Positions 5,109 to 40,926 of a stretch of 42,478 nt of DNA are shown here, piece by piece. The stretch is taken from the IMG/VR virus record IMGVR_UViG_2698536308_000013; one strand, written 5' to 3'. This stretch comes from a virus. Its lineage: Duplodnaviria > Heunggongvirae > Uroviricota > Caudoviricetes. Made by a program: the position numbers and the translations under genes. Below the pieces are notes generated by a model that saw only the letters and a list, made by a program, of their open reading frames with translations, made no database searches and was not told where the DNA came from. Each line of letters starts with the position of its first letter. Positions within the stretch are counted from its first letter, which is position 1.

Positions 5109-6071
5109 TCAACTAATCGCCTCAGCACTGGCTTTTGCGATCACGGCAGCCGGGGAATTTTTTTTTCTGGTTATCGTAGGTGCTTCATCTGCTGCGGTAA
5201 TGCTCAATTGAACCTGGATAATGTCGCTATTACCCCCATCAGGCCATTCACCTGACACCTGAACCTTCGGGAAACTGAAAGTGTATGCCCCCTCTCCATT
5301 CGAAAGCGTGAAGCTGAACGGAACTGTTTCTCCAGTCAGTGTTTTACTCCAGATTTCCCACGCGGCTTTAGACCATGAAAGCGTCACCGTACCGGACGGT
5401 GTAAAAGTAGTCGGAATATTTGCTCCTGCATAAGGCGAGCCAGTCCCGATACAACGCTGTGTCTGGAGTTTGTTATCGAACTGAATATCAAAACTGTCGA
5501 TACAAAAACCGTTACCTCCGGCAACACCATTCAGGCTTACTGCTGAAACCTCCTTAAACGAATAACGTAGCTTTCCTGCACTATCCACAGGTTCGCCTTT
5601 GATAAAATTCGTATCATCGGCCTTTGATTCCCAGTCCAGTCCGGCAAAGGTTACGGTCGCTGTAATATCGCCGTCGTTAGGGATCTGCATTTTCCATGAG
5701 CCAACCTGCGCTCCTCTGACGACAGAGGCAATTCCGACATCGGACGCATAGGTCGCCAGAGAAAATGTTATTCGCTCATTCCCCATTGTCAGAGAATCGC
5801 CTGACCATTCCGCGCCGAAACAGGATGCAAGAAAATCATCATGTTGACCCCAGCGAAATTTGGTACCAACATCACCGCCGACATCCACAGTGCCAGGCGT
5901 CGCCCCCTGAGCCATCCGGGAGCCACCAATCTCATTATTTTCGCCTTTATTCTGGGTGGGTTTTACTCCCCAGCTTGTGCGTTTTAATAAACTCCAGTCA
6001 CCACTTGCTGGCGTAGTGCCTGCAACCGTCTCCCGGATAAATGCCGAGATAACCTTTGCACCTGAACTCAC
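5109..6071 (-). CDS. Major tail tube protein (gpV-like) with C-terminal Ig-like domain
   Basis: 320 aa, Ser/Thr/Gly-rich beta-type composition, position immediately upstream of the G/GT chaperones. Confidence 0.7.
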   Translation of the reverse strand: MSSGAKVISAFIRETVAGTTPASGDWSLLKRTSWGVKPTQNKGENNEIGGSRMAQGATPGTVDVGGDVGTKFRWGQHDDFLASCFGAEWSGDSLTMGNERITFSLATYASDVGIASVVRGAQVGSWKMQIPNDGDITATVTFAGLDWESKADDTNFIKGEPVDSAGKLRYSFKEVSAVSLNGVAGGNGFCIDSFDIQFDNKLQTQRCIGTGSPYAGANIPTTFTPSGTVTLSWSKAAWEIWSKTLTGETVPFSFTLSNGEGAYTFSFPKVQVSGEWPDGGNSDIIQVQLSITAADEAPTITRKKNSPAAVIAKASAEAIS

Positions 6072-6097
6072 AGGAGCCTCCTATGTCATTAATTGCG

Positions 6098-6490
6098 CTA
6101 GAGCGCGCGATATGGAATTTGAAGATTAAGCTGGAACCAGCCATTCTTTTCGCCAACGGCTATTGAGGAAACAGCCTGGTAACTGAGACGATCGTCATCC
6201 TGAAACTCAAACAGTTCCCGCAATTTATCGGCTGTCTCAGTAATGAGTTTTGAACCAGAACCTGCGGGGACAAATAACTGAATAATGATTATCCCCGTGC
6301 GATAAACAACCGGCCCCGCGCCAATTTCATTAACTCCAGCCTGCCCGGGAATATTACTTAACCGCGCCCAGATTAACTTACCGGAAGGATCGAACGTTGG
6401 CCCGTTCGGATACAATACGTCTTTTCCATCAATAATCGTCTGTGCCGTCATTCTGGAAATAACCGTATTTCTGATTTCAGTAAACTTCAT
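6098..6490 (-). CDS. Tail terminator-like protein (gpU / DUF3168-like)
   Basis: 130 aa ORF between the tail completion and tail tube genes; assignment by position and size. Confidence 0.5.
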   Translation of the reverse strand: MKFTEIRNTVISRMTAQTIIDGKDVLYPNGPTFDPSGKLIWARLSNIPGQAGVNEIGAGPVVYRTGIIIIQLFVPAGSGSKLITETADKLRELFEFQDDDRLSYQAVSSIAVGEKNGWFQLNLQIPYRAL

Positions 6491-6867
6491 TTGTAAGCCT
6501 GTAAAACACCATGAAAAGCGTTGGCATACACGCCAGTTGGCGCTTGTTGTGAATGACCGTTTTCAAGAGCCTCTGCATAAGGAAGGTTATTCTGGATATA
6601 AATAACCCCGTAATTTGCAGCTTTCGAAATAACCCCGATCCCACGCTGAACAGCAATCGTACCGTTCGGATCCACGTTATCAGATATACCAAAATCGGGA
6701 TGCTGTAACGACACCAGGTTGTTATTTCTGAAACGTCCGGTATCAACCGGAGCAGCAATATCAATAGCAGTAAGAATCTGCATAGCGATGTAGCGAATCT
6801 TCAGCCCTACATCTTCCTCAATCATCCCGGCAAATATTGACGGTTCTATATCCCATGCCTTTGCCAT
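6487..6867 (-). CDS. Tail completion protein (HK97 gp10-like)
   Basis: 126 aa ORF, overlapping start/stop with neighbours, in the head-tail joining gene block. Confidence 0.5.
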   Translation of the reverse strand: MAKAWDIEPSIFAGMIEEDVGLKIRYIAMQILTAIDIAAPVDTGRFRNNNLVSLQHPDFGISDNVDPNGTIAVQRGIGVISKAANYGVIYIQNNLPYAEALENGHSQQAPTGVYANAFHGVLQAYK

Positions 6868-7251
6868 TTACGCTCTCCTTAACTGGATAGAGTAAACTGA
6901 TGCGGAAGGATCTACACTTGCTGTAATTACCTCGTATCGTTGTAACTGCCTTGATACAGGATCATAAATCTCAATAATATGGTCGACAGCTGGTTTATCC
7001 GTAACCTCGCATACCAGAGCGGTTAATTTAAGGTCACCATGCAAAATATTAATCCCATCAATTCTGCCCAGCTTATAACGTGTCAACACGCCTCGCCCGG
7101 TATAGATTGCGGTGGATTCGCCGCCAGTTTCCGTCACAGGATCCCAGTGCCGGTGCGTAACGTAAGAACCAGAAAAATCACTCACGGCGTCCGCTAAATC
7201 CTCATCAAAAGCAGCGGCAACCTCTGACTGAATCTCTTCACGAAGCCCCAT
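6868..7251 (-). CDS. Head-tail adaptor / head closure protein
   Basis: 127 aa ORF translationally coupled to the connector gene; synteny only. Confidence 0.45.
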   Translation of the reverse strand: MGLREEIQSEVAAAFDEDLADAVSDFSGSYVTHRHWDPVTETGGESTAIYTGRGVLTRYKLGRIDGINILHGDLKLTALVCEVTDKPAVDHIIEIYDPVSRQLQRYEVITASVDPSASVYSIQLRRA

Positions 7252-7646
7252 TATCCCCCCCTCACAACCCTGACTTGTGAGCGACTAAGTCCGTACGGTT
7301 TCAGCAGTGCTATCGCAAGCTGTAAATCGGGTTCAAGCAATGCAGTGCTGTTTGCTGGCAACTCAGAAAATGATTTCGATACACTGACCCCGTCAGCCGA
7401 CACGGCTTTACTGATAACAACGCCAGAATCATTTTTCTGCTGAAACAACTTACCGAATGAGGCAATTCTGGCTGCATATGCTCCCGCAAGTTTTACCTCT
7501 TCCGGAATACGGGATGGGTTAATTTTCAGGTTGAAGCCATTAAGCCAGGCATTAGCCATTAAAACAGCTTTATTTTTAGCGTTCTCACTCGTCCAGGCGT
7601 TCCCAAACGCATTATCAACGTCATCACAGGTCACGTAAGTGATCAT
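7251..7646 (-). CDS. Head-tail connector protein (gp6-like)
   Basis: 131 aa ORF directly downstream of the capsid gene block; synteny and size. Confidence 0.5.
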   Translation of the reverse strand: MITYVTCDDVDNAFGNAWTSENAKNKAVLMANAWLNGFNLKINPSRIPEEVKLAGAYAARIASFGKLFQQKNDSGVVISKAVSADGVSVSKSFSELPANSTALLEPDLQLAIALLKPYGLSRSQVRVVRGG

Positions 7647-7649
7647 GTG

Positions 7650-7826
7650 TTACTCCTGAGTTTTCCAGCCCATAGCCTTCCAGTTGTCAACTTCATCAGG
7701 ATGAACATTAGCGATAGTTGGTGCGCCGGGAAACATCTGATAATCGGTCACCATAACCACTAACTCAATTTGCGTTTTTTGTGCGGCTTCACGCTGTGCT
7801 CTTTGCTCTTTAGTTAATCCGGCCAT
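7650..7826 (-). CDS. Small hypothetical head-module protein, 58 aa
   Basis: Untracked ORF MAGLTKEQRAQREAAQKTQIELVVMVTDYQ..., G-rich RBS, stop 4 nt before the next gene start. Confidence 0.35.
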   Translation of the reverse strand: MAGLTKEQRAQREAAQKTQIELVVMVTDYQMFPGAPTIANVHPDEVDNWKAMGWKTQE

Positions 7827-7836
7827 ATGCCCCCCA

Positions 7837-7858
7837 TTAAAAATGGGGCCGAAGCCCC
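7837..7858 (-). terminator. Intrinsic terminator-like hairpin after the major capsid gene
   Basis: Minus strand GGGGCttcgGCCCC followed by ATTTTTAA, 11 nt after the capsid stop. Confidence 0.45.
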
Positions 7859-7868
7859 GTTTGAATGT

Positions 7869-9008
7869 TTAACCAAGAATCAGACAACCATGTGCCGGCT
7901 TCACTGATGAAACACCCCATGCCAGTCCAACTTCATAGCGCACCTGGCGATACTGACGATACAGTGCAATCTGGAACGTAATCCCTGAAATCGGGTCCGT
8001 AACATTCATTACATCATCAGCATTATCGCCACCTTCCGGCATTGCCGGAGTACGGGATGCCAGCAGAAACGCGTTGCGATCAAACGCCATATTTGCAGTA
8101 AAGGCCCCAACAACTGTGATGGCAGTATCATCGGCCAGATCCTGACGCAGTCCGGGCGCTGCAAGAGTAATCAGATTGCTGGTCGCTGCTGCCACAACAT
8201 ACTGATTCGGATCACCAGCGAACGTAACAATCTGACCTGCAGAAATACTCCCCGAACCAGTATCAATGGAAATAAGAACATCGCCTTCTTTTTTCTCTCC
8301 ATTCACGAGATAACCAGTTGCAGCAACCTTTGGCGCTCGTTTCACACCTGCCGAACTGTGAATATTGAATCCCTCCAGACGCCCCAACACGCCCTCACGC
8401 AGTAGCTGTTCAGTGCCGGATTCATTCACTTTAAACAATACAGACTGTTTTCCGCGCAAATTAGCAATGGCAGTGGAGCCAAGCACCATCTGCAGATCGG
8501 TTGTCGGTGCGCCGTTATCCTCCAGAACCTGACGAGCCAGAGCAGCATCAGAAAGATCATCTTTAACACCAAACGGCGTTGTCCCTGCGGTTCCCACGGC
8601 GCGGGAAGCACCGAAATACAACGCACCAAGATCAGCCTCAACCTCGTTTGCAAGGGCGCGAAAAGCCTGCTTGAACTGATCAGCCAGAATGGTGTTGTAA
8701 GTCCCTGAAGGGCCAAGAGCCAGTTGTTCTTCACCATTCCATTTAACCGGTGCCATTTTGGATTTAGTAATTTTTACATCAACAGTGCCAATATTTTGAT
8801 CACCGGTATTCGGAGCTGACGGCCCCGGTACGATATCTTCGGTTTTCGCCTCAGGCGCAACTGGCGCGGTTACCGTCTGATCTTTTGCTGCGGCGTCAGC
8901 TTTTGCGTTTTTTGCTACCGCAGGGATAAAACCTACCTGCTCACGGGATACAACATCCAGGGCGGTATAAATAGTCGGGATCAACCCGGTCAGGGTATTT
9001 CCAGCCAT
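7869..9008 (-). CDS. Major capsid protein, about 379 aa
   Basis: Large ORF after the scaffold gene; likely start at the internal Met MAGNTLTGLIP (cat at 9006-9008); terminator hairpin downstream. Confidence 0.75.
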   Translation of the reverse strand: MAGNTLTGLIPTIYTALDVVSREQVGFIPAVAKNAKADAAAKDQTVTAPVAPEAKTEDIVPGPSAPNTGDQNIGTVDVKITKSKMAPVKWNGEEQLALGPSGTYNTILADQFKQAFRALANEVEADLGALYFGASRAVGTAGTTPFGVKDDLSDAALARQVLEDNGAPTTDLQMVLGSTAIANLRGKQSVLFKVNESGTEQLLREGVLGRLEGFNIHSSAGVKRAPKVAATGYLVNGEKKEGDVLISIDTGSGSISAGQIVTFAGDPNQYVVAAATSNLITLAAPGLRQDLADDTAITVVGAFTANMAFDRNAFLLASRTPAMPEGGDNADDVMNVTDPISGITFQIALYRQYRQVRYEVGLAWGVSSVKPAHGCLILG

Positions 9009-9106
9009 AATTAAATATTCCTTAAAAATTTGCGTAATTGTGAATAGATGGAGTAATGAGCTATCCAGCCCTGACACCAGCTCCCATCCGGAAGCTGACA
9101 AATGTG

Positions 9107-9871
9107 TTAATCAACGATTGTGATACCGTCTTTCAATGCGTTTTGCTTACCTGCAACATCCAGTGCATCAAAAGCAGAGCGTTTCATCGTTTTCTGACCA
9201 ATATCATGCTGTGTCGGACGGGAGCCGCCGCCATTGTTGCCACTGGCTTTCAGGATGTAGTCTTTCTGAGGGTAATTTTCGACAAGGAACTCCAGCGCCT
9301 CATCAAACTGCGCCAGTTCGCCAGGCTTCGCGCGGGAATAAATTTTGTTGCCGGAAGCGTCATAAGCAACGATCCTCCCTTCTTCCACTTTGAATGCCTG
9401 CCCGAAGCGGGCTTGTAATAAATCTGCCGGGATCGCAATTTTATCGGCAATATATTTTGAACCCGCAAAACTACCGCCAATCATAGAATCGTAAAGCTGC
9501 TTCTCCAGCATCTGAGAGCGTTGCTTTTCTTCATCTAATTGCTGCTGAAAATTTTTCGTAATTTCTGCCTTAACCTGGTCAACCTGTCCCGCATCGAGCA
9601 GCTTTTTCTGGTCGATTTTTGACAGCATTTCCAGTGCCTCGATCGCCTTCTTCGGGTCTTCGATAGCGGCAAACTTAGCCAGTTTTTCCTCTGCAGCTTC
9701 TTTAGCCAGGCGATGATTTTTTGCCTCGCCATTAAGCTCTGTAATTTTTTTTGTCGCCAGCGGTGCATCGAAGCCAATTTCTTTACCATCGTCGTGCACA
9801 TAAACTGGCAGGCCAGCAGTATCAATTTCTGCGTATTGTTTTCCGTTAATCTCGACCGTTTTCAGTTTCAT
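9107..9871 (-). CDS. Head scaffolding protein
   Basis: Charged, helical, Lys/Glu/Gln-rich ORF between the morphogenesis gene and the major capsid gene; start chosen at MKLKTVEING. Confidence 0.5.
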   Translation of the reverse strand: MKLKTVEINGKQYAEIDTAGLPVYVHDDGKEIGFDAPLATKKITELNGEAKNHRLAKEAAEEKLAKFAAIEDPKKAIEALEMLSKIDQKKLLDAGQVDQVKAEITKNFQQQLDEEKQRSQMLEKQLYDSMIGGSFAGSKYIADKIAIPADLLQARFGQAFKVEEGRIVAYDASGNKIYSRAKPGELAQFDEALEFLVENYPQKDYILKASGNNGGGSRPTQHDIGQKTMKRSAFDALDVAGKQNALKDGITIVD

Positions 9872-9975
9872 ATTAGTACCTGGTTTAAGTCTTCCGACAG
9901 TTACGCTGCTCACCATCCGGATCGCAGCAATAAAAAAGGCCACCCGAAGGTAGCCTGTTGTAATAAATGATTTAT

Positions 9976-11091
9976 TTAAATCCCTGCTTTTCTGAATACC
10001 TGTGCATCACGCTCACGGAGCTGCTTCAGCGTCAGCCATTCGCCTTTATCGGTGTAAAATTCATCTGGCGACATACCACCATCCCGAATCAGCTTTGCTC
10101 GGCTTTCCCCCACAATCTGTTTTTGTCTGGTGTAAGGCTGACGCAAAAACCATTCCCTGTAGGTTGTATCTCCGGCCACCACGCCATCCATGCTGGCCCG
10201 CTCAGCCGGGGAAATATCGCGAACATCAATACCCAGTTCCTTCGCTGATTTCAGAATGAACGTTTCCGTTGAGCGGCAGCAGAAATGAATTTTTCCCGGC
10301 CCCTGCAAATAAGGCACGCTGTGACCTACAGGTTTATTATTCAGCGTATATTTGAGGCGATCCCTGATTCGACATTGTGGCGTAGTACGATTATCAAGCG
10401 TTGATAACCATTGCTTACCCTTAATCAAATCATTATTCGCGCTGGCAAAACTCTCACGGGCAGTAGCAGCAAGATGTCCAACCGCTGTTTTTGCAATGCT
10501 GGCCGCATTAGCCCGGCTCATCTGCAATGCACCATCCTGAAATCCCTTACTGACATGTCCCCGAATTTTTCTTGCGATCTGCTCATTGGTATCCCCCAGC
10601 AAAAAACCCTGACGCACTGTATTTGTTATGCGTCTGAGCCGATCCGCCTCAAGATCTGAGGCCCACTCACTGAGCAGTCGTCCCTGGAATGGTCGCGCCA
10701 TTGCAGCGGCATAAAGTGCATCAGGAGAGATACCAACCAGAGGGTGAACATCAGCAACAAAATCAGGTAGCATAGAATCAAACAGACTTAACTGATAACC
10801 AGCCTCATAAATTGCCAGCTCGTTCAGCTCTCCGGAGAGACTGGTAAACATGCTGTTAATAGCAGTGCGGTTAACCTCTCTGACGCTCGCCAGAAGTGAC
10901 TCCAGGCGCTTAACGGTAAAACTACCTGGATCGAGGCTGTCCAGTGCTATCAGCAGGCGAGCAGTAAGTTCCGCATCGCTGTCATTCAGTATTTTCACCA
11001 TTCTGGCAGCCACGCCAGTGCTATAGCGGGATATCCAGACTGCATGAGCAATTGATTCATCACGCAGCCGTTCATTCACGGTTTGCATCAT
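9976..11091 (-). CDS. Head morphogenesis / minor capsid protein (Mu gpF / SPP1 gp7-like)
   Basis: 371 aa ORF directly downstream of portal, overlapping its stop by about 20 nt. Confidence 0.65.
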   Translation of the reverse strand: MMQTVNERLRDESIAHAVWISRYSTGVAARMVKILNDSDAELTARLLIALDSLDPGSFTVKRLESLLASVREVNRTAINSMFTSLSGELNELAIYEAGYQLSLFDSMLPDFVADVHPLVGISPDALYAAAMARPFQGRLLSEWASDLEADRLRRITNTVRQGFLLGDTNEQIARKIRGHVSKGFQDGALQMSRANAASIAKTAVGHLAATARESFASANNDLIKGKQWLSTLDNRTTPQCRIRDRLKYTLNNKPVGHSVPYLQGPGKIHFCCRSTETFILKSAKELGIDVRDISPAERASMDGVVAGDTTYREWFLRQPYTRQKQIVGESRAKLIRDGGMSPDEFYTDKGEWLTLKQLRERDAQVFRKAGI

Positions 11092-12478
11092 TGATTTCCA
11101 TCAGCATTACACTCTGATTTTTTAATTCATCGATCACTTCCTCTGGACGGGAATCCTGATCGATAAATTTCAACGCCTGCAACACCCGAACCGCATCAAT
11201 CTGACGTATATCACCGCCCTGACGCAATGACTGAACAGCCAGCGCGGAGGATGAGTCAAACACCTGGGCAGATACATCCAGTTCAGTGCGCACATCCACA
11301 TTGCCACCGCAACTCTCTCCGATCCATTCCGCCATTATCTGGAGAATATTATCGAGGGCATCTTCGAGGGAGTTCGCCATTGTATAAAGCGGCGAGTTTT
11401 CCTGCATTCGCTCTTCATTAGTCTGATCAACAGATTTGGTGGATGTATTTTCAGCACGCAGAAGTTTAGCGCCGGCATGACGCATCTGATTTTCCAGCTT
11501 CTCAAGTGATGTTTCGCCAGATTCTATCGCTGCGCCACTATGTTCAACATATTCGAGGCCATTTTTTGTTCTGTCCTCAAAAATCGTAGCGGTGGATGCA
11601 CCAACCGTCAGTTCTTCATTCCTGTCCAGCCCGTAGGCCACCAGCAATGGAACGCGGGCAACATGAAGAATATTGTCCTGCTCGCTCTGGCTTTGCCAGT
11701 GCTTGATATTCAGCAAGCCAAGATTAAGCAATGGCGGTGTACCACGCATAAATCCTGTTTTCTTCGTGTACAGTGTTACCAGAGGAATATCATCACGGCT
11801 GGTATTCCATGACTCATGAAGCGTCCAGACAGATTCGCCATTAGTGCCTTCGCTACGTCGATAAATTTCAACTCGACGGGGCATAATATGGCGGATCTGC
11901 TCCACCTTCTTCTGCCCGAAATCATCACCATCAATAATGATGACCTCTTTTATACGCAAATCAGTGAGAACAACTTTCCCTTTTTCAACTTTCGATTTCC
12001 ATCCAATAACCTGGCGTGGATTCAGCATCGTAACGTACGGACGACCACCGGTCGCGTTTTCATCGGCTTTTGTCCGAATCTCTTTCATATCCGTTCGTGG
12101 ATAGTCCACCAGCGCATGTGCCACACCATACTGAAATGCGAGGCTGAAAAATTGCTGCGCCCACACATCCAGTCGGCTCCCCTCCATGTCGATATTTTCT
12201 GCATATTCCCTGATTTTTGCCGGCGTTTCCTCACTCAATACTGTCGGCTCTGCAAATATGCGCCCAATATTTTGCTTGATGCTTTCTTCATACACAGGAA
12301 GTAGCGTAGCCACAGACAGGCGTTTTTTATAAGCGTCTTCATCTTCGTTAGGCCATTTTGGGAGATAATTTTCCCCCTGCCTGCGCATTTCAAGCGTACC
12401 GCCCATCAGTGCGTCGTTAATATCCCACGCCTCCAGCATATCGTTATAGTCGAGGTTGGGTGTTGATATATCAGCCAT
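11072..12478 (-). CDS. Portal protein
   Basis: 468 aa ORF immediately downstream of the terminase large subunit gene. Confidence 0.8.
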   Translation of the reverse strand: MADISTPNLDYNDMLEAWDINDALMGGTLEMRRQGENYLPKWPNEDEDAYKKRLSVATLLPVYEESIKQNIGRIFAEPTVLSEETPAKIREYAENIDMEGSRLDVWAQQFFSLAFQYGVAHALVDYPRTDMKEIRTKADENATGGRPYVTMLNPRQVIGWKSKVEKGKVVLTDLRIKEVIIIDGDDFGQKKVEQIRHIMPRRVEIYRRSEGTNGESVWTLHESWNTSRDDIPLVTLYTKKTGFMRGTPPLLNLGLLNIKHWQSQSEQDNILHVARVPLLVAYGLDRNEELTVGASTATIFEDRTKNGLEYVEHSGAAIESGETSLEKLENQMRHAGAKLLRAENTSTKSVDQTNEERMQENSPLYTMANSLEDALDNILQIMAEWIGESCGGNVDVRTELDVSAQVFDSSSALAVQSLRQGGDIRQIDAVRVLQALKFIDQDSRPEEVIDELKNQSVMLMEINDANRE

Positions 12479-18958: not shown

Positions 18959-19487
18959 TGTTGCCCCCACAAACAGACTTCACGCTCAATCTCACGACGA
19001 GTCATNNNNNNNNNNNNNNNNNNNNNNNNNNNNNNNNNNNNNNNCCTTTCCATTGCTTACCGCCAGCATATGTCCAGCGACGTAGCTGGTCACATGCGCC
19101 TTTGATATCGCCCTGGTTTATTTTGCGAAGAAGCGTCGATGTTCTGAAATTGCCAGCACCCACGTTGTAGACGAACGAGTACAGAGCGCCGCGCGTTGTT
19201 TCCGGTATATCGACTTTGATGTACGGGTTAATTTGTCTGGCAACCGTGGCAAGGTCTTTATTCAAGAGTGTTTTGCATTCTGCTTTGGTATACGTTTTAC
19301 CGAGCATGATGTCTTTTCCTGTATGCCCGTGACATACAGTCCATACACCAACAATATCTTTGTATGGTATGTAGCTGACACCTTCCAGGCCATCGTCACC
19401 ACTTGGGCCAGTGATTAACACTGATGCTATAGCAATTGCTCCGCCACCAATAGCAGCAGCAACGACTTTTCGTAATGATGGAGGCAT
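18957..19487 (-). CDS. SAR-type endolysin (phage 21 R-like lysozyme), interrupted by an N-gap
   Basis: N-terminal signal-anchor-release-like hydrophobic, Gly/Ala-rich segment ([18 protein letters not shown]); stop overlaps the Rz start; exact 3' portion unreadable because of N-run. Confidence 0.65.
19006..19044. other. Assembly gap, 39 N
   Basis: Run of N in the sequence. Confidence 1.
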
Positions 19488-20928: not shown

Positions 20929-21865
20929 TTTTCCTCACATATGTCATATAGTAAAGGATTATATATACCGTTGTTTTGGACGCTCAAACAGCGAATCAGA
21001 TCAAATAAAACGCACATTTGTTAACATTTACACAAAGTCTGCGTGGGATATTCTGAAAGAATATCCATAATGTGGAGAGAATCTATTGAAGTGCATGGTG
21101 CCGGGTGCCTCCCGGTGAACAAAATGTTCGTGATACCTGTCGGCGACAGAAAAGGTTAATGGTATCACCCCACCGCACAGGGGGATTCACCATGCAGGAG
21201 TTTTCTTAGCAAACTCACTGCGCGCCCGGCAACTCCCAACCACATAAAATGCGGAGTTTGTGGCATTTATGCATATAACTCGCAGGAATTATCTTAAAAA
21301 ACTGATGTCGATCCGGATTAAAAAGAAGCAGGTCATCATCAGATGACTGGAAAAAAGGAAAACAAAAAATACTCATCATACAGTTTTGATTGCAGGGATG
21401 AGCCTGCTATGCACAATATGCAGAATATAAGCAAGATAAAAATATGCAGGCATATTATTTCGGATCTTGTTATTAACACAACCTTTTTAATAATCATTTG
21501 GCATACAATAAACCAGCCCAAAAAGAACCGCCTAAACAGGCGGTTGGTCAATACAAAGGATGCTTCGTCTTTATTATAGTAATCTGAGGCGTCGGGTGTC
21601 TTGTATCAGACAACATATTGTCCCGCTAAACAGCGAATTACAAACCACCCTGCAATGATCTCTCATCTCATTTTATATGAGTTGACGACATCAGGATAAC
21701 GCATCATCAGCCCCTGCCAAGAAATATCAAAACTCCCGCCAGCAATGTGTTATCACAATATTGTAAAAAAAACACAGCACCGAAACTATAACTGGTCTCT
21801 GTTATAATTTGGAGCAGAAAGACCAGTTGCCCAACTAGCAGCATTCTCCCCTGCTTTCCTGACGT

Positions 21866-21972: not shown

Positions 21973-22515
21973 TCAAGCCATTTTCTCAGCAAATGATTCA
22001 CGCATGGGAATATATAGGGCATACTCAGCAACAGCTAACCAATTAGCAATCCGTTTTTCGCATGTGCTAAAACACCACTCTGGGTGTGCATCATTTAGCA
22101 ATTCAGCCATTTTGCGCTTAGTCATCCCCCGCCCTTCATAGCGTTGCCGGAGAATGCAAATCAATCCTGGATGCTCTGCCAGCACCTCACTTATGACTCG
22201 ATCAATACATAACGCCTCTGCATCAGTACAATGCGCCAGCCAGCTCTTTTGCTTGCCGTTGATCATCTCTCGCAAAAACGCTTCCAGCTCAGCTTTCTCT
22301 ATTCCCGCTTTTTTCATTCTGCGCAGGGCTTCATTAATGGCTGTTTTCGTCAGTTTTTTGGATGCCAACAACTGATTGAACATATTCCCTGACCTGCCAC
22401 CGCCAATATACGACCAGCGCCCCCACATACGTAGTTTTCCCTGAATCCAGACACTTTCCAGCGTGGTGAGGCGAAGGTGTTCTCCGCTTTTTCCTGTATT
22501 CGTTGGGTAAATCAT
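21973..22515 (-). CDS. Late-gene antitermination protein Q-like
   Basis: 180 aa, last gene of the nin-type block, followed by a promoter-like region and terminator upstream of lysis genes. Confidence 0.55.
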   Translation of the reverse strand: MIYPTNTGKSGEHLRLTTLESVWIQGKLRMWGRWSYIGGGRSGNMFNQLLASKKLTKTAINEALRRMKKAGIEKAELEAFLREMINGKQKSWLAHCTDAEALCIDRVISEVLAEHPGLICILRQRYEGRGMTKRKMAELLNDAHPEWCFSTCEKRIANWLAVAEYALYIPMRESFAEKMA

Positions 22516-22802
22516 AAATGACCTTTCTTTCTCCAGATTTCTTGTGTGCGAAAAACCCCTTCAGCATGCATCAGGCGCAATTCTTCTTTGGTGTAATCGC
22601 TGGTTTTTACCCGCCCGTCGATTAGATCGTGGCATGAGCTACAGGCTATCGCCGCCTGCATATCATGTGGTTTTGTCGCTGTTCCGCACGTCCCCGCCAG
22701 CCTGTAATGCGCCAGCACAGAGGTTTCGGGATTGTGATTGCAGTAGCCAGGGATTCTGATCTGGCACATCTGGCCTTTAGCCGCTTTACGTAAATTCACC
22801 AT
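22512..22802 (-). CDS. Nin-region protein (DUF1364-like, Cys/His-rich)
   Basis: 96 aa with CxxxxxC...CxxC...CSSCH pattern; translationally coupled to flanking genes. Confidence 0.45.
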   Translation of the reverse strand: MVNLRKAAKGQMCQIRIPGYCNHNPETSVLAHYRLAGTCGTATKPHDMQAAIACSSCHDLIDGRVKTSDYTKEELRLMHAEGVFRTQEIWRKKGHL

Positions 22803-23401
22803 TACGCAAACTCCAGTAGTTGTGCGGCCACATTTTCAACTTCCTCCTGAGAGGAGAATTTACGGAACAGAATCCAGTTCCACAGCACATTCAGTACAGA
22901 TTTATAAACCTGCTGAAACTCGACTTCGTCCATATTCGCAAAAGCGATGGATTTTGCCCGACGCCCACGGCTACCGTCCGGATAAATATGCTCGGTGTAA
23001 AATCCGGCCTGAATGGTTACCCACTCGCGGAAAGCCTCAAACGACTTTAGCAACGCCGTATCCCGGGTTCTACGAGTCGCAACGGTGTTAAGGTATTGCT
23101 CTGCGGCATCACTCAGGGCTGGCGTGTGTTCCCGACCAACTGATTCGCACAGGTAATCAACGAAACCAGACAGCAGTTCTCGTTCGCGAGGCGTGATCGC
23201 CCCACCGACCGGAGTCCAGTAATCGAATCCCAGTTGCAGGAGTTTGAAAAAACGCTTGTGGAATGCGTAGTTACGCACACGCTTAAAGTCTGCGTGTATC
23301 CACTCACCTATTTTGATTTGATGCAGAAAATCGCAACTCTCCGGCGTCGCCGGGAGAAGTAAACCAGAAGAGGTTTGTTTGACCAGTTGTATATGCGCCA
23401 T
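22802..23401 (-). CDS. Nin-region protein (DUF1367-like)
   Basis: 199 aa ORF upstream of and coupled to the DUF1364-like gene; family recalled from prophage annotations. Confidence 0.45.
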   Translation of the reverse strand: MAHIQLVKQTSSGLLLPATPESCDFLHQIKIGEWIHADFKRVRNYAFHKRFFKLLQLGFDYWTPVGGAITPRERELLSGFVDYLCESVGREHTPALSDAAEQYLNTVATRRTRDTALLKSFEAFREWVTIQAGFYTEHIYPDGSRGRRAKSIAFANMDEVEFQQVYKSVLNVLWNWILFRKFSSQEEVENVAAQLLEFA

Positions 23402-23681
23402 TTCTCAATCTCTCGATGGCGCAGCGCAGCAGATGCCAGTTGTTCAGGCTGACGAATAAAGTATAAATAAACTGGCTATGGTGTAAAGCCCCACATAGCA
23501 TGAACAAACACTACATATCAAATAGCTGGTACAAGGATAGAAATACGACACTTATTATTAAAAACGATTAGATAAATTACATTTTAATGTTATGCAAAAG
23601 TTCTTTTTTATCATAACATTTCAATAAAAGCATTACAGATGCAATCATCCCGTCATCATCAATTATTTAAGGTGGTTAAAC

Positions 23682-23768
23682 ATGGAAAATAACAAGTTCG
23701 CACATCTCGCTCCTTTTTTATCCGTAATCCTTTTCGCTTGTTGTTTTATATGGGCATTATTTTTATAA
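23682..23768 (+). CDS. Small hydrophobic peptide, 28 aa (MENNKFAHLAPFLSVILFACCFIWALFL)
   Basis: Strong SD AAGGTGG 6 nt upstream of ATG; single predicted TM helix; isolated in an AT-rich ORF-poor region. Below the ORF-track size cutoff. Confidence 0.35.
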   Translation: MENNKFAHLAPFLSVILFACCFIWALFL

Positions 23769-24176
23769 AGTAGCCACATGATAAGTTGCTGGAATCATAT
23801 TTCCCACTCAAGTCATTAACATTTGATAAGATATATCTAAAAGGACGCCTTTACATTATTTATGCGTATATAATTTATTTATATACACAGTAAAGGTATC
23901 CTGGGAAAATATTTATCGTTAAAAAATACATCATAAATAATTAAGCTGAAATTTCAGAACACAACTAATACACACAATAAGGTTCAGTAACAGTAATCTA
24001 TGTGGACTACATCGAGATTTTTTGATTAAACTTTAATAACTTATTCCTAACACACAGAATGCATAAACTAAAAGTAAAACAAATAGTTATACGAAAAACA
24101 ACCATATTTATTCTATCTTCTCCTCTAATCAACATATCAATTATGTGTTTCATAACAGCTTGACATAACCCTCCAA

Positions 24177-24199
24177 AAGATGCATTTTTAATGCATGTT
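24177..24199 (+). promoter_or_regulatory. NsrR-type operator-like palindrome upstream of the yeaR-like gene
   Basis: AAGATGCATTT-t-TAATGCATGTT; left half matches the recalled NsrR half-site AAGATGCATTT; TTGACA -35-like hexamer at 24160-24165. Confidence 0.45.
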
Positions 24200-24214
24200 T
24201 TGGAGGAGGTGGTT

Positions 24215-24553
24215 ATGACACACAAGAGAATTCCTAAAGATTGGGTAATCAAACGCTCAACTCCGTTCTTCACAAAAGAGAACGTACCTTCAGCGTTATT
24301 AACACATCATAATACAGCAGCAGGTGTTTTTGGGCAGTTGTGCGTAATGGAAGGCACTGTAACATATTATGGTTTTACTGATGAGAATGCTACTGAACCG
24401 GAGATAAAAGTAGTCATTAATGCTGGCGCTTTTGCAACAAGCCCACCACAATACTGGCACCGTGTTGAACTAAGCGATGATGCTCAGTTTAATATTAACT
24501 TTTGGGTCGCTCCAGACTTTTCGGGCGAAAAAGTCTATAGCACCAAAAAATAG
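24215..24553 (+). CDS. YeaR-like protein (DUF1971)
   Basis: About 112 aa; RSTPFFTKENVPSALLTHHNTAAGVFGQLCVMEGTVTYYGF resembles recalled E. coli YeaR; RBS GGAGG 7 nt upstream. Confidence 0.6.
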   Translation: MTHKRIPKDWVIKRSTPFFTKENVPSALLTHHNTAAGVFGQLCVMEGTVTYYGFTDENATEPEIKVVINAGAFATSPPQYWHRVELSDDAQFNINFWVAPDFSGEKVYSTKK

Positions 24554-24582
24554 ATGATCATATTAAAAATGCTTTAACAGTC

Positions 24583-24619
24583 AGACCCGGCAGGGCTATC
24601 CCCGACGGGTCTCATTTTT
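24583..24619 (+). terminator. Rho-independent terminator after the yeaR-like gene
   Basis: AGACCCG...CGGGTCT stem followed by CATTTTT, 30 nt after the stop. Confidence 0.6.
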
Positions 24620-25173: not shown

Positions 25174-26175
25174 TTAGTAATCTGCGTGTTTCGCACTTTT
25201 CAGAAATGCTTTCATATTTTCATTAGGTCGCTCAATTTCGAAGTTACTTCCATATAACTCTTGTAATTTTGGCCATAACTTACTTAATAACCCTCTCCTG
25301 CGATAAAATGGATGTATCCAAACGGTAGATAGGTACGGAGAATTTGCATTTGAATTGTTTATTGTGACCAGCCCAACTAAACATTGTCGATAACCACTAT
25401 TATCCATTGATTGTATTTCTTCGACGAATGGATACGCGATTACATCAGTCCAACCATGATCGGTTGTATCCCATTGCATTCCGTCATGACATTCCTTCGA
25501 CTGATAGCGGCGTAAAGCTACACACGCGAGCTTTTGCCAATCTGGAGAATTAATTGTGATCTCTTCATCGTATGACGCGCCTATTGGAGCGGGTATTGGT
25601 CTGATTAATCCAGCATGGCATTCATCATAGAACTTCATGTTTCCCTCAGAAACGTTGTGTACGTTGGGTTGCTCCATGTGTGCGCCATTCAAAAATAGCT
25701 CTGATAGTAGTGTATCTACACTGTAATCTTTATTGATTATTGTCGGCTTAGAGTTTTTCTTATTAAGGCCGCGAGTAACGATTTTTTGATCAATGTTAAC
25801 AACATGGAATAATCCGTCGGGGAGGCTAGCGAACCACGATGGGGCATCGGACCAGAATAGCATGCCTTTTGTACTTCTTAAGAGTTTAATTAAGTTAATA
25901 CAAGCTTCTTCACTAGTCTTGCCGTTGATGCGAAGTATGTTAGGACTAAAGTAATATTCATCCATATCAGGGAATGCAGCTTCGCAAAACTCCTGTACAT
26001 AATTTAGCACCTGGATTCTACAGAGATCATCATAGCTGGTAATAACTAAGGGGGTATCTTCATTACTATTATGATTATCAATAATGCAATCTATAGCGAG
26101 ACTTACTGCTTTGCGTATCACTTCAGTTGAATCTAACGACTCTAAAAATTTTGTCTTTCGTGTGCGAATATCCAT
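25174..26175 (-). CDS. Hypothetical protein, 333 aa, with possible C-terminal GNAT-like acetyltransferase fold; second gene of a low-GC operon
   Basis: Clean ORF 15 nt downstream of gene A. C-terminus CLVGLVTINN...STVWIHPFYRRRGLLSKLW resembles GNAT beta4-alpha3 with an R-x-x-G motif. N-terminal 230 aa unrecognised. Confidence 0.5.
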   Translation of the reverse strand: MDIRTRKTKFLESLDSTEVIRKAVSLAIDCIIDNHNSNEDTPLVITSYDDLCRIQVLNYVQEFCEAAFPDMDEYYFSPNILRINGKTSEEACINLIKLLRSTKGMLFWSDAPSWFASLPDGLFHVVNIDQKIVTRGLNKKNSKPTIINKDYSVDTLLSELFLNGAHMEQPNVHNVSEGNMKFYDECHAGLIRPIPAPIGASYDEEITINSPDWQKLACVALRRYQSKECHDGMQWDTTDHGWTDVIAYPFVEEIQSMDNSGYRQCLVGLVTINNSNANSPYLSTVWIHPFYRRRGLLSKLWPKLQELYGSNFEIERPNENMKAFLKSAKHADY

Positions 26176-26190
26176 GTATGACCTGCGCTA

Positions 26191-27213
26191 TTAAAATTCA
26201 TGAATGAACGGTTTGTCATCTGGTTGCAAAATGGTGGTTTTATTCGTTGCTACATTTAAACTGTTGTAGAGCATAATTGCCAGGTTCGATGCATTTTCAA
26301 TCAGCGTTTCAAGATCCTGGTCTGTAATCACTACGAGGTTCCCTTCTTTATCCTTTCCACCACGATGCACTAAGTGATTTCGATTGAGGGTTGCCAATTC
26401 AATAGCTTCTATCGGACAGTCTTTTTGTACTTTTATATCGAATGTAGCTTCATAGCGGTCGATTACCTTTTTAGTGCTATGCCAGCTTGCACTGATCAAG
26501 TGTTCCTTGATTGACCTGATTAGCTCTCCCCTAATTTTCTCGATGGGTTCACCCTTGAAAGGCAACGCAGCAATATCTTTGCTTACTTTAAATTCAGTCT
26601 TACCTTTTTCTATACAATTGGCTATGTAGACATCATCTTTCTCTATAGAATTAATGAATAGCTCAACATAAAGCGTTTCCAAAGCTGTAATAACATTCGT
26701 GTAGAGCAAACTAAGCAAGTGGTTTTTTTGCTGTTGTTCAGTTTTATCTTTTGCAAGTTTTTTTATTTTATCGATATTATCAATGAATTTTAAATACGGA
26801 TTACCGGAAGACGTTACAGCGTCGTAGATATCATCATCGTACCAATCATCTATATTATTTGAGTTTCCAGACCAGTCAAAACATTGTGTTTGTAATTCAT
26901 CTACTAATTCCTCAATATACTCAGATTTAACATATTGACCGAAGATGGATTGTAGTTCTTCGCTCGCATCATACGGCCCGCCATATATGTAAGCATAGCC
27001 ACCTTCTCTACTTTCATACGGACAAGCATTTGCCGGATCTTCAAAGTTTTCAAAGAACCAGTTTTTCATTACTTCGAGTTGATCTTTTTTGCTTATGTAT
27101 TTTAAAGATTTTAGTGGAACTTTCTTTCCATTAACCTCGAAAACAATTTTCACGATGTAACGCTCCCTTGTATCAATTGCGCAACTATTATACCACAGCG
27201 AAATACAGGGCAT
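26191..27213 (-). CDS. Hypothetical protein, about 340 aa, with C-terminal HEPN-like R-x4-H motif; first gene of a low-GC operon
   Basis: Perfect SD AAGGAGG 6 nt upstream of the ATG at 27213 (tracked ORF extends to 27282); C-terminal LNRNHLVHRGG fits the HEPN Rx4-6H signature. No other recognisable domain. Confidence 0.5.
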   Translation of the reverse strand: MPCISLWYNSCAIDTRERYIVKIVFEVNGKKVPLKSLKYISKKDQLEVMKNWFFENFEDPANACPYESREGGYAYIYGGPYDASEELQSIFGQYVKSEYIEELVDELQTQCFDWSGNSNNIDDWYDDDIYDAVTSSGNPYLKFIDNIDKIKKLAKDKTEQQQKNHLLSLLYTNVITALETLYVELFINSIEKDDVYIANCIEKGKTEFKVSKDIAALPFKGEPIEKIRGELIRSIKEHLISASWHSTKKVIDRYEATFDIKVQKDCPIEAIELATLNRNHLVHRGGKDKEGNLVVITDQDLETLIENASNLAIMLYNSLNVATNKTTILQPDDKPFIHEF

Positions 27214-27351
27214 AACCTGCCTCCTTAAACTAACATACCATGAGCCAGCAATGTCCGCTATTGGCACAAAGCGGACAACCACGCTAGCTCTCCCCTGTGC
27301 CAGAAAAATGTCAATTTACATATGAACTAATGCTCTTTGATCTAGTAACGT

Positions 27352-29320: not shown

Positions 29321-29720
29321 TTACCCCCTGAAGCCTGGCGGGATCGCACTATCCGGTAACGAGACGGTGTTAACCTGTCGGAGTAACGTCTCAGGTCGAA
29401 CACCTTTCGGCGCGAACAAGCCCTGGTATTCATTGGCGATGCTGTGTCGAATCACCTGCTCAGGTGAAAAACCCTGCTGGCGGAATTTTTCCAGCTCCCG
29501 TATCGCCCCGTTAGCGCCCTGCTCCGTTCGAATCGGTTTTCGCAATGCCTGGCGAAATTCAACCCACTCACGCCAAAGCGAGACAGAAATCCAGTTCGGC
29601 AAAGCAATATCCAGAGGGTCAAACTTTTTGACACCTCGATTCCCCCGGGGGGGATTTAGGGGGGGATCTGTTTTTAGATCTTTATCTGTATCTTTATTAG
29701 TTGCCTTTGTGTTGACATCA
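29321..29720 (-). CDS. C-terminal fragment of an O-like replication initiator (ydaU-type), cut at its 5' side by an N-gap
   Basis: Nearly identical (2 mismatches in first 80 nt) to the 3' end of the ydaU-like gene at 32696..33090; the gap begins exactly where identity would end. Confidence 0.6.
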
Positions 29721-29731
29721 NNNNNNNNNNN
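29721..29731. other. Assembly gap, 11 N
   Basis: Run of N in the sequence. Confidence 1.
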
Positions 29732-29979
29732 ACTCTCGAGAGTTTTTTGCGGGCGCTTTGCCAGTCCTTGCGAGCCTGTTCAGACGGGAATAAGCCGTAG
29801 CCAGAATTATATACATCACCACTTGCGACCAGTTCTATGCATAAGCGACCGACAGACGCACGACTGATACCTGTTTCATCTGACAACTGCCGAATCGTGA
29901 CCCGACCGTCCTGATGCACGAGTTCCACAATTCGCGTCTTCAGTTCTTCCCGCTGTTCGGGAGTAAAAGGTTTCGCCAT
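29732..29979 (-). CDS. Partial paralogue of the 27352..27783 gene (N-terminal HTH part), 3' end lost in the gap
   Basis: MAKPFTPEQREELKTRIVELVHQDGRVTIRQLSDETGISRASV...; about 85 percent nucleotide similarity to copy 1. Confidence 0.5.
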
Positions 29980-29993
29980 AAATCCTCCTGAAA

Positions 29994-30740
29994 CTACTTA
30001 ACAACCCTCGAATGGCTAACATTCGGACGCCAGCTCTCCCAGTTAAAATTCACCCAGCGCCCGCCGTTCATGACCATGCGATCCATCACCCGCTCGCCGA
30101 GCAATGTTTTCATCACCTCATAGTTCAGGTTTGTCAGCATCCCCACGCTGCGCATCGACGCTGTCCGGCGATCAACAATCTGGTGCAGCACCACCTGCTC
30201 GTTTTTCGTCTCGCGCTGAATGCCAATTTCATCAAGAACCAGCAGATCCACTTCGCACAGCTCCCGCAAAAATTTTTCGCCTGACTGCCCGTCGTCATAG
30301 CTGGCGTGCAGGGCGCTCATAACATCAGCCACGGTAACCACAATCACTGTCTGACCGTCTTTCAGCAGGCGATTCCCGATAGCTGCCGCTAAGTGATTCT
30401 TCCCGGTACCAGGTTTTCCGCTGAACGCAAAATTTGTACACCCGGTCATCAGTTCATCGGCGATGGATTTCGCCTGGCTTAACGCGTATCGCTGGCCGTC
30501 GTTCTGCACCTGGTAATTCGCAAACGAGCATTTACGGTGCAACGGCTGGATGCCTGAGCGATTCAGAATTTTTTCCACCCGCAACTGGCGATTCAGGCGG
30601 TTGATCTCCTCGCTACGTTTCTGGCCTTCAGCAAGTTGCCACTCGCGCCACTCCGCTACCGTTCTGAATGGGGCGGTTACATGTGGCGGGGTCAGTCGGC
30701 GGATGCGTTCCAGAACGCCGCCTGTCGCAATATTTTTCAT
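29994..30740 (-). CDS. ydaV: DnaC-like helicase loader (YdaV-like), copy 2
   Basis: 248 aa, about 95 percent identical to copy 1 with the same Walker motifs. Confidence 0.85.
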   Translation of the reverse strand: MKNIATGGVLERIRRLTPPHVTAPFRTVAEWREWQLAEGQKRSEEINRLNRQLRVEKILNRSGIQPLHRKCSFANYQVQNDGQRYALSQAKSIADELMTGCTNFAFSGKPGTGKNHLAAAIGNRLLKDGQTVIVVTVADVMSALHASYDDGQSGEKFLRELCEVDLLVLDEIGIQRETKNEQVVLHQIVDRRTASMRSVGMLTNLNYEVMKTLLGERVMDRMVMNGGRWVNFNWESWRPNVSHSRVVK

Positions 30741-30746
30741 GGTCCG

Positions 30747-31423
30747 TTACCCCCTGAAGCCTGGCGGGATCGCACTGTCCGGCAACGAGACGGTGTTAAC
30801 CTGTCGGAGCAACGTCTCAGGCCGAACACCTTTCGGCGCGAACAGGCCCTGGTATTCATTGGCGATGCTGTGTCGAATCACCTGCTCAGGTGAAAAACCC
30901 TGCTGGCGGAATTTTTCCAGCTCCCGTATCGCCCCGTTAGCGCCCTGCTCCGTTCGAATCGGTTTTCGCAATGCCTGTCTGAACCGGACCCACTCATGCC
31001 AGAGTGTTTCCGGCAACCAATCGGGCAGCTCAATAGCCTCCGGCTCGAATTTTTTAGACGCTCGTTTTTGGCGAGGGGGAGATCAGTATTTAGATCTTCC
31101 TCTTCCTCTTCCTCTGGTAACGCTTTTTGATCCGTTTGTGTAACGCTGGCAGCGTTACCTTTTCGTTTCAGTTCGCGTATTTTTGTTACTCGCTCGTTTG
31201 TAACCGCCCGTTTTTTTTAGAGCTTTTTCCGTTATGACGTTCAAAGTTAGGTAGAGAAAGCCCTCCGTCATTTTCGACCAGCCATCCAACCTGAATTAAC
31301 GCATCAGCAAAACCAGACATAAAAGTGATGCGATCTATTGCACTTTTTGTAACGCCGCGAGCGTTACAATCTGCATTACCGTCTATCATTTGTTGATCCG
31401 CCCATGCCCAGAAGCGAATAACC
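30747..31423 (-). pseudogene. O-like replication initiator with a different N-terminal domain, 5' end truncated by the IS, probable frame disruption
   Basis: C-terminal 89 aa match the other O-like copies; upstream part (31186..31423) is in another frame; a T8 homopolymer and a CTCTTC x3 repeat lie in between. Confidence 0.5.
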
Positions 31424-31487
31424 TGAGGTAGCCTGAGTTTAACGGACACTCCTTCCTGAAATAGAATGGCATCAGAAGGAGCTAATA

Positions 31488-31790
31488 ATGAGCAGAAAAA
31501 CCCAACGTTACTCTAAAGAGTTCAAAGCCGAAGCTGTCAGAACGGTTCCTGAAAATCAACTTTCGATCAGTGAAGGCGCTTCCCGATTATCTCTTCCTGA
31601 AGGCACTTTAGGACAATGGGTTACCGCCGCCAGAAAAGGGCTCGGTACTCCTGGTTCCCGCACGGTGGCTGAACTGGAATCTGAAATTCTGCAACTGCGT
31701 AAGGCGTTAAATGAAGCTCGCCTTGAGCGAGATATATTAAAAAAAGCAACAGCGTATTTTGCACAGGAGTCGCTGAAAAATACGCGTTAA
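31488..31790 (+). CDS. IS3-family transposase OrfA (HTH)
   Basis: 100 aa ending ...LERDILKKATAYFAQESLKNTR, typical IS3 OrfA leucine-zipper C-terminus. Confidence 0.85.
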   Translation: MSRKTQRYSKEFKAEAVRTVPENQLSISEGASRLSLPEGTLGQWVTAARKGLGTPGSRTVAELESEILQLRKALNEARLERDILKKATAYFAQESLKNTR

Positions 31791-31825
31791 TCGAACAATG
31801 GCGACAACAATTTCCCATTGAAGCG

Positions 31826-32644
31826 ATGTGTCAGGTATTTGGTGTATCCAGGAGCGGTTATTACAACTGGGTACAGCATGAACCCTCAGACAGAAAACAA
31901 AGTGATGAGCGGCTAAAACTGGAGATTAAGGTGGCACATATCCGCACTCGCGAAACATATGGAACCCGGCGGCTCCAGACGGAGCTGGCAGAGAATGGCA
32001 TCATCGTTGGTCGTGACCGACTGGCACGTCTTCGTAAGGAGCTAAGGCTACGCTGTAAGCAGAAACGCAAGTTCAGAGCGACTACGAACTCGAACCACAA
32101 TCTGCCAGTTGCGCCAAATCTGCTGAACCAGACGTTCGCTCCTACAGCACCAAATCAGGTCTGGGTGGCGGACCTGACGTATGTTGCCACACAGGAGGGA
32201 TGGTTGTACCTCGCTGGCATCAAAGATGTTTATACGTGCGAAATTGTCGGCTACGCCATGGGAGAGCGCATGACAAAAGAGCTGACAGGTAAAGCCCTGT
32301 TTATGGCGCTCAGGAGCCAGCGCCCACCTGCCGGGCTAATCCACCACTCTGATCGAGGTTCACAGTACTGCGCATACGATTACCGGGTCATACAGGAGCA
32401 GTCTGGTCTGAAAACATCAATGTCGCGTAAAGGTAACTGTTACGACAACGCTCCGATGGAAAGCTTCTGGGGAACGCTGAAAAATGAGAGCCTGAGCCAC
32501 TATCGTTTTAATAACCGGGATGAAGCCATCTCAGTAATACGGGAATACATTGAGATTTTCTACAATCGTCAGCGTCGTCACTCTCGTCTGGGGAATATCT
32601 CCCCGGCAGCCTTCAGGGAAAAATATCATCAGATGGCTGCTTAA
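31826..32644 (+). CDS. IS3-family transposase OrfB (DDE catalytic domain); frame opens upstream and is normally fused to OrfA by -1 frameshift
   Basis: Contains …VWVADLTYV… and …HSDRGSQY…, consistent with an IS3-family DDE integrase core. Confidence 0.85.
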   Translation: MCQVFGVSRSGYYNWVQHEPSDRKQSDERLKLEIKVAHIRTRETYGTRRLQTELAENGIIVGRDRLARLRKELRLRCKQKRKFRATTNSNHNLPVAPNLLNQTFAPTAPNQVWVADLTYVATQEGWLYLAGIKDVYTCEIVGYAMGERMTKELTGKALFMALRSQRPPAGLIHHSDRGSQYCAYDYRVIQEQSGLKTSMSRKGNCYDNAPMESFWGTLKNESLSHYRFNNRDEAISVIREYIEIFYNRQRRHSRLGNISPAAFREKYHQMAA

Positions 32645-32688
32645 AAAAAGAACAAATGGTAGTGTCCGCTATTGCCAGTACACCTCAN

Positions 32689-32695
32689 NNNNNNC
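32689..32695. other. Assembly gap, 7 N
   Basis: Run of N immediately after the IS right end. Confidence 1.
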
Positions 32696-40725: not shown

Positions 40726-40926
40726 ATGGAGGTGTTCATGTATAAAATTACCGCCACTATTGAAAAGGAAGGTGGCACTCCTACTAACTGGACAAGATAT
40801 TCAAAATCTAAACTAACGAAATCAGAATGCGAAAAAATGCTCTCAGGTAAAAAAGAAGCAGGCGTTTCCAGAGAGCAGAAAGTAAAACTGATAAATTTTA
40901 ATTGCGAGAAACTTCAGTCCTCGTGA
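40726..40926 (+). CDS. ydaC: YdaC-like small protein
   Basis: MEVFMYKITATIEKEGGTPTNWTRYSKSKLTKSECEKML... between ralR and xis as in Rac. Confidence 0.6.
   Translation: MEVFMYKITATIEKEGGTPTNWTRYSKSKLTKSECEKMLSGKKEAGVSREQKVKLINFNCEKLQSS

Follow-up and report, generated by a model that had tools for sequence, protein, structure and literature searches.

A predicted NsrR-repressed, STM1808-type gene carried by Rac-type prophages of Escherichia coli

The viral record IMGVR_UViG_2698536308_000013 was analysed over its whole stretch of 42,478 nucleotides (hereafter the window). It carries a 112-aa gene of the DUF1971 family that is preceded by a palindrome of the type bound by NsrR, the bacterial sensor of nitric oxide (NO). 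The gene is probably an NsrR-repressed, NO-inducible member of the Salmonella STM1808 type that has been delivered to E. coli by Rac-type phages. A sequence-only reading of this DNA had proposed a yeaR-like moron with an NsrR-type operator. The prophage-borne, self-contained moron and its operator are supported by the comparisons reported here, and because the very strong NsrR-type operator lies over the predicted promoter, nitrosative-stress-responsive expression appears to be the best reading of the locus. The "yeaR-like" label is not supported: the gene belongs to the DUF1971 family but is not the counterpart of yeaR.

The operator was scored with a palindromic weight matrix derived from the 27 NsrR sites of E. 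coli CFT073 in Table 4 of Mehta et al. (2015; PMC5320621). The window palindrome reaches 26.6 bits and ranks second among the 28 sites, behind that of ytfE (30.1 bits) only, and the hcp, tehA, yeaR, ygbA, and hmp sites all score below it. The probability of such a match is 9e-11 per position, corresponding to about 4e-6 expected hits in 42 kb, and the second-best match in the window has 12 bits. The suggestion that the palindrome over the promoter resembles the NsrR motif is thus borne out by the matrix. The result is unchanged with only the sites positive in chromatin immunoprecipitation, or with ytfE left out of training. In its left half, AAGATGCATTT, the palindrome coincides letter for letter with the top-scoring ytfE and hmp half-sites (PMC5320621, Table 2). 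Few NsrR sites known in E. coli match the window operator in strength.

Consensus scans called neither the promoter nor the terminator of the gene, and comparative geometry and folding were therefore used instead. The 250 nt upstream of the gene were scanned with the NsrR matrix in 80 genomes, one per species, including the genera Kluyvera, Leclercia, Pantoea, Enterobacter, Pseudescherichia, Silvania, Buttiauxella, Citrobacter, Klebsiella, Raoultella, Salmonella, Yokenella, and Phytobacter. At all enterobacterial loci but one, an NsrR site of 20–30 bits, centred 27–39 nt before the ATG, is the top 23-mer of the locus (up to 12 kb); only Leclercia adecarboxylata L015 departs from this, with 12 bits. 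Alignment of the loci on the operator shows a -35-like hexamer 11 nt (plus or minus one) before the NsrR site in otherwise unrelated upstream sequences. The phage has TTGACA at this place, the Kluyvera group TTTACA, and Klebsiella TTGACG. Operator positions 7–12, which correspond to the -10 position, read CATTTT, TATTTT, TATATT, or CATATT across the loci. The conserved spacing between the -35 hexamer and the operator places the predicted -10 element within the operator, so that repression would operate by promoter occlusion. The features of the locus are listed in Table 1.

Table 1. Sequence features of the DUF1971 locus, with positions counted from the first nucleotide of the window.
Feature	Position	Strand	Description
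AT-rich conserved block upstream of promoter	23915..24159	+	Part of the mobile module; diversity 0.003-0.07, GC 27-30%
-35 hexamer TTGACA	24160..24165	+	Read directly; invariant in 41/41 E. coli/IMG-VR copies
Extended inverted repeat, 17-nt arms CCTCCAAAAGATGCATT / AATGCATGTTTTGGAGG	24170..24206	.	Arms at 24170-24186 and 24190-24206; encloses the operator
NsrR-type operator, 11-1-11 inverted repeat AAGATGCATTT-T-TAATGCATGTT	24177..24199	.	Palindrome AAGATGCATTTTTAATGCATGTT; 26.6 bits, top rank in the window
Candidate -10 CATTTT	24183..24188	+	17 bp from -35, within the operator; predicted from geometry
Alternative -10 TTTAAT	24187..24192	+	21 bp from -35; candidate
Shine-Dalgarno GGAGGTG	24205..24211	+	Read directly; 3 nt to ATG; GGTGGTTATG invariant among haplotypes
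DUF1971 gene	24215..24553	+	112 aa, ATG at 24215, stop ends at 24553; RefSeq WP_000149055.1; orthologue of Salmonella STM1808
Terminator-like hairpin AGACCCG...CGGGTCT + CATTTTT	24583..24619	+	Stem 24583-24589 with 24606-24612; TTTTT at 24615-24619

DUF1971 is the only domain of the 112-aa protein (Pfam, E = 2e-26); an NCBIfam match is limited to the N-terminal part of TehB and falls under the cut-off of that model. The gene is the single plus-strand open reading frame between DUF1367, whose start codon is at 23401, and two cargo genes, and the flanking phage genes are all on the minus strand (DUF1367, DUF1364, and Q at 21973–23401; the cargo genes at 25174–27282). Its orientation opposite to the phage operons and its own TTGACA element and terminator were correctly described in the sequence-only reading. 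The terminator hairpin, whose stem has internal mismatches, folds at -19.4 kcal/mol (z = -2.4 vs shuffles) and was missed by the consensus terminator scan; other haplotypes keep a hairpin 3' of the gene despite sequence divergence from the stop codon onward. No RNA family of Rfam matches the moron locus, RalA and STnc100 elsewhere in the window being the sole Rfam matches, and PADLOC returned no match for the DUF1971 gene or its two neighbouring cargo genes.

The relatives of the window protein identify it as an STM1808-type protein. It shares 79% identity over its full length with Salmonella STM1808 and 79–83% with the enterobacterial STM1808 orthologues, compared with 41% for K-12 YeaR; the proper comparator is therefore STM1808, and the gene is not a yeaR orthologue. 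The nearest relatives, 75–83% identical, form a tight subfamily that occurs in many Enterobacteriaceae, Vibrionaceae, and Shewanella. The Salmonella relative is encoded right after dsbB, in the order fadR-nhaB-dsbB-gene, which is the position of STM1808. The structure of the Vibrio fischeri orthologue (PDB 3DL3) matches the window protein at E = 3.5e-59, and that of YeaR is PDB 3BB6. Three histidines, H31, H32, and H82, are invariant across an alignment of 17 orthologues including the window protein; the Salmonella protein is reported to be a zinc protein that needs H32 and H82 for zinc binding. In a neighbour-joining tree, the phage copies are sister to the Kluyvera/Leclercia/Pantoea group and not to Salmonella, and the C-terminal motif FSGE.VYS.KK is common to the phage copies and this group. 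The phage gene is far more AT-rich, with a GC content at third codon positions (GC3) of 0.31–0.34 vs 0.44–0.69. The Kluyvera orthologue sits among ordinary chromosomal genes (RpiR, phosphotransferase system, fimbriae).

The control of this subfamily in other bacteria also points to NO. In the work of Rodionov et al. (2005), "STM1808 (tehB^)" and the Klebsiella orthologue were assigned predicted NsrR sites, and E. coli none. Two later papers (PMC7082413, PMC7527575) cite STM1808, after Karlinsey et al. (2012), as a gene of the NsrR regulon and of virulence. The matrix scan found no NsrR site upstream of most Vibrionaceae orthologues. In Aliivibrio fischeri ES114, an orthologue with 77% identity closes the norV-norW-fpr gene series beside the divergent norR, in agreement with the NorR table of Rodionov et al. 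(2005). The family is tied to two unrelated NO-responsive regulators, NsrR and NorR, in different lineages, which is good indirect evidence that its function is related to NO.

A Fur box with 13–17 of 19 matches to GATAATGATAATCATTATC was observed just 5' of the -35 element, about 25 nt upstream of the NsrR site, in the Kluyvera/Leclercia/Pantoea/Enterobacter/Buttiauxella orthologue loci (L009–L030), and a Fur box also occurs in two Photobacterium loci. This arrangement suggests that the chromosomal orthologues with the Fur box (L009–L030) may be under dual control by Fur and NsrR. No such box is present in the phage copy or in the Salmonella/Citrobacter/Klebsiella group; the best Fur match in the window promoter is 11/19, a background level seen 363 times in the window.

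In E. coli, the gene appears to be known from phage copies alone. Of the 5,426 complete E. coli genomes searched with sensitive blastn, 457 have the moron gene, each at 95% identity or more, and its coding sequence is intact in 453 of these 457. The possibility of a hidden chromosomal STM1808 orthologue was rejected, since the phage gene and the STM1808 DNA, used as blastn queries, both give the same 457 genomes, the latter at 73–74% identity and with nothing further. It follows that E. coli has no chromosomal orthologue. A larger query including DUF1367 matches 2,016 genomes, and only 457–464 carry the moron gene. The moron also occurs in three isolated phages (vB_EcoS-666R9, 673R7, and 613R10) and 35 IMG/VR contigs.

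The five E. coli copies whose surroundings were read (the window, an O78 strain, and three others) are all in Rac-type prophages. In these, the moron adjoins DUF1367-DUF1364-Q on one side and a variable cargo slot on the other, which holds Hok/Gef with KilA-N, QueH, a 1,210-aa protein, or the two hypothetical genes of the window. As in the morons of Juhala and Hendrix, the gene is patchily present at a fixed site between conserved genes, has its own terminator and a promoter of predicted activity, and differs from its neighbours in base composition (GC 41% in the DUF1971 gene, 27–30% upstream, and about 50% in the nin/Q genes). The upstream boundary of the mobile module can be placed near 23915, because the diversity among 27 E. 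coli/IMG-VR haplotypes is 0.22–0.31 at 23815–23914 vs 0.003–0.07 beyond. Between DUF1367 and the module lies a long non-coding stretch (23402–23914; GC 27–31%) that is highly variable among Rac variants and looks like a recombination junction.

The window as a whole is a Rac-type lambdoid prophage of E. coli, and the local 1.8 kb are 100% identical to E. coli O78 strain 3. The element of that strain has the order tail genes, terminase, trkG, lysis genes, Q, DUF1364, DUF1367, ydaV/U/T/S, sieB, kilR, recET, ralR, xisR, intR, and ttcA. On the minus strand of the window, positions 40744–40922 match Rfam RalA at 225 bits, the antitoxin small RNA of the RalR/RalA type I toxin-antitoxin system of Rac, which confirms the Rac identity of the element. 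A second minus-strand RNA match, to the small RNA STnc100 (21039–21225; 86.6 bits, gathering score 47), lies just downstream of the Q antiterminator gene. The two cargo genes of the window, minus-strand and adjacent, encode uncharacterised proteins of 333 and 363 aa with sub-threshold Pfam hints of a C-terminal GNAT domain and of HEPN/RES N-terminal domain 1, and could be a toxin-antitoxin or defence pair. At 5843–11370, the window holds about 5.5 kb that the prophage of O78 strain 3 lacks, strain 3 having a truncated DUF4055 pseudogene there, and the window is free of the IS2 insertion that strain 3 carries (about 27320); the window prophage therefore looks more intact. The region at about 29720–32695 aligns to strain 3 only in part, and short runs of N occur at 19006–19044, 29721–29731, and 32688–32694.

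Based on these features, a mechanism can be proposed. In a lysogen, host NsrR with its iron-sulfur cluster would bind the 23-bp operator, which would cover the -10 element and spacer of a sigma-70 promoter (TTGACA, 17 bp, CATTTT), and would thereby occlude the promoter. NO would damage the cluster of NsrR, which would then come off the DNA. The mRNA produced would have a short leader (about 16–20 nt) with a strong Shine-Dalgarno sequence, and transcription would end at the hairpin followed by T5. The protein may then act as its chromosomal orthologue in Salmonella, which reportedly aids growth under nitrosative stress. Since E. coli has no chromosomal copy, the phage would supply both the gene and its link to the host NO regulon, and carriers probably gain an NO-inducible gene that E. 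coli chromosomes lack.

Several points weigh against this scheme. The consensus scan called no plus-strand promoter at the locus because the -10 element is weak, CATTTT having three of six consensus matches. In the most frequent haplotype, the left half-site is degraded to AACACGCATTT and the operator has 20.6 bits; a common operator variant is AACACGCATTTATAATGCATGTT. Majority haplotypes have a perfect TATAAT at operator positions 11–16, 21 bp from the -35 element, and promoter use may therefore differ between haplotypes, although the -10 lies inside the operator in every case. H-NS may silence this AT-rich region regardless of NsrR. NsrR binding in vivo, the exact -10 element and transcription start, NO induction, and any fitness benefit are inferred.

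Some of these points would also suit a gene that is silent in E. coli lysogens, owing to the poor -10 or to H-NS acting on the AT-rich region, or an operator that is a non-functional relic. The low GC content of the upstream DNA fits such silencing, and the operator and 5' untranslated region are the most polymorphic part of the module: among 27 haplotypes, a diversity hotspot at 24165–24214, confined to these elements, reaches 0.10–0.13 vs 0.00–0.01 in the flanks and 0.02 in the coding sequence. However, the variation in the operator falls mainly at degenerate positions, and no haplotype has lost the -35 hexamer, the operator core GCATTT.TAATGCAT, or the Shine-Dalgarno/ATG region. The operator scores at least 17.5 bits in each of the 41 E. 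coli/IMG-VR copies. The nearly universal intactness of the coding sequence and a promoter geometry matching that of functional-looking chromosomal orthologues also argue against decay, and a relic or silent gene is considered unlikely.

The palindrome may have a further effect on the host. PMC5320621 cites the identification of NsrR targets by repressor titration from multicopy sites. As the strong operator lies on a replicon that is amplified at prophage induction, titration of NsrR is conceivable here as well. It is a speculative and rather improbable scenario that the replicating phage genome titrates NsrR and derepresses the host NO regulon (hmp, ytfE, hcp), in which case the polymorphism of the palindrome could reflect affinity tuning or arm-to-arm template switching and not drift.

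The sequence-only reading noted the inverted repeat; the repeat is present and is longer than described, its 17-nt arms running 7 nt past the operator on each side so that CCTCC pairs with GGAGG, reaching the first Shine-Dalgarno bases. The palindrome could accordingly be mainly a nucleic-acid hairpin, one that masks the Shine-Dalgarno sequence of transcripts initiated further upstream, forms a DNA cruciform, or acts as a replication-slippage hotspot. As RNA, the repeat folds at -22.9 kcal/mol (z = -4.9). The long stem is kept in most haplotypes, three pairs being changed on both sides, and the arm changes include a single-change intermediate and a double-change descendant (CCCTC...GAGG to CCCTC...GATG to CCATC...GATG). 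Arm extensions of 7–10 nt with unrelated sequence are also found in the Salmonella, Citrobacter, and Yokenella orthologues. However, the covariation is weak and marginal, as 25 of 500 shuffles score at least as high as the 13 closely related haplotypes do, and the Klebsiella, Leclercia, and Raoultella orthologues show no arm extension. The conserved -35 geometry would place the transcription start inside the right arm, so that the mRNA of the gene itself would lack the left arm, and the NsrR matrix match of the core is far above that of a generic palindrome. A role chiefly as a hairpin is thus very improbable; a hairpin is also compatible with NsrR control and does not exclude it. The hotspot itself could result from arm-to-arm template-switch mutation, operator-strength tuning, or a role of the RNA or DNA hairpin.

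A further alternative, a yeaR paralogue activated by NarL/NarP with nitrate and repressed by NsrR like yeaR-yoaG, shares with our reading the DUF1971 family and an NsrR site (22–24 bits in the yeaR promoter) and is hardly tenable given the protein identities above, the lack of a yoaG-like (DUF1869) gene 3' of the DUF1971 gene, where the terminator is followed by minus-strand genes and no plus-strand open reading frame, and a promoter in which no FNR site with three or fewer mismatches, no exact NarL heptamer, and no NarL 7-2-7 match with fewer than four mismatches was found, the NarL test being a weak one because the same consensus scan also gives the real yeaR promoter four mismatches. The NsrR/NarL analogy with yeaR-yoaG drawn in the sequence-only reading is not supported.

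The gene family and its NsrR control are already known or predicted, nor is a host-regulated moron a new concept. In the searchable literature, no paper was found on an NsrR-controlled phage moron or on the window locus, and the carriage of this gene by phages, with the phage copy as the only copy of E. coli, appears to be undescribed there. The inflamed gut, the urinary tract, and macrophages all use NO as a main weapon. Should the phage copy function as in the scheme above, about 8% of the sequenced E. coli would gain an extra NO-inducible defence gene by lysogeny, and the gene would arrive already wired to a host sensor through a near-consensus operator. A prophage would then clearly have restored a regulon member missing from the chromosome of a species, and the locus would offer a compact system for studying transferred genes that arrive with their regulation in place.

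Among known systems, Salmonella STM1808 is the closest. It is likewise a single-gene unit with an NsrR palindrome (25.5 bits) shortly before its start codon, its -35-to-operator spacing equals that of the window gene to within one base, and His31, His32, and His82 are conserved in both. It differs in lying in the core chromosome between dsbB and gnsB, whereas the window copy is in a Rac-type prophage, in the distance of the operator centre from the ATG (39 nt vs 27 nt in the window), and in GC3 (0.58 vs 0.34). The NsrR-repressed and NarL-activated yeaR-yoaG operon of E. coli shares the DUF1971 fold family (3BB6 vs 3DL3) and an NsrR operator in the promoter; it differs in the low protein identity given above and in an operator 72 nt from the start codon vs 27 nt in the window, and the window gene has neither a yoaG partner nor a detected NarL site. 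In the norVW(-fpr)-DUF1971 operons of Vibrionaceae, the proteins are orthologous (77–80% identity) and the gene is again linked to the NO response, but it is the last gene of a sigma-54/NorR-activated operon and has no NsrR site of its own.

Phage morons regulated by the host are known from the Fur-controlled stx1 of Stx1 phages and from bor and lom of lambda. The window moron resembles them in being an accessory gene that brings its own terminator and a predicted promoter and is inserted between conserved phage genes, and it may likewise be expressible from a repressed prophage and tied to a host regulon through a site for a host transcription factor. It differs from them in that its regulator would be the NO sensor NsrR.

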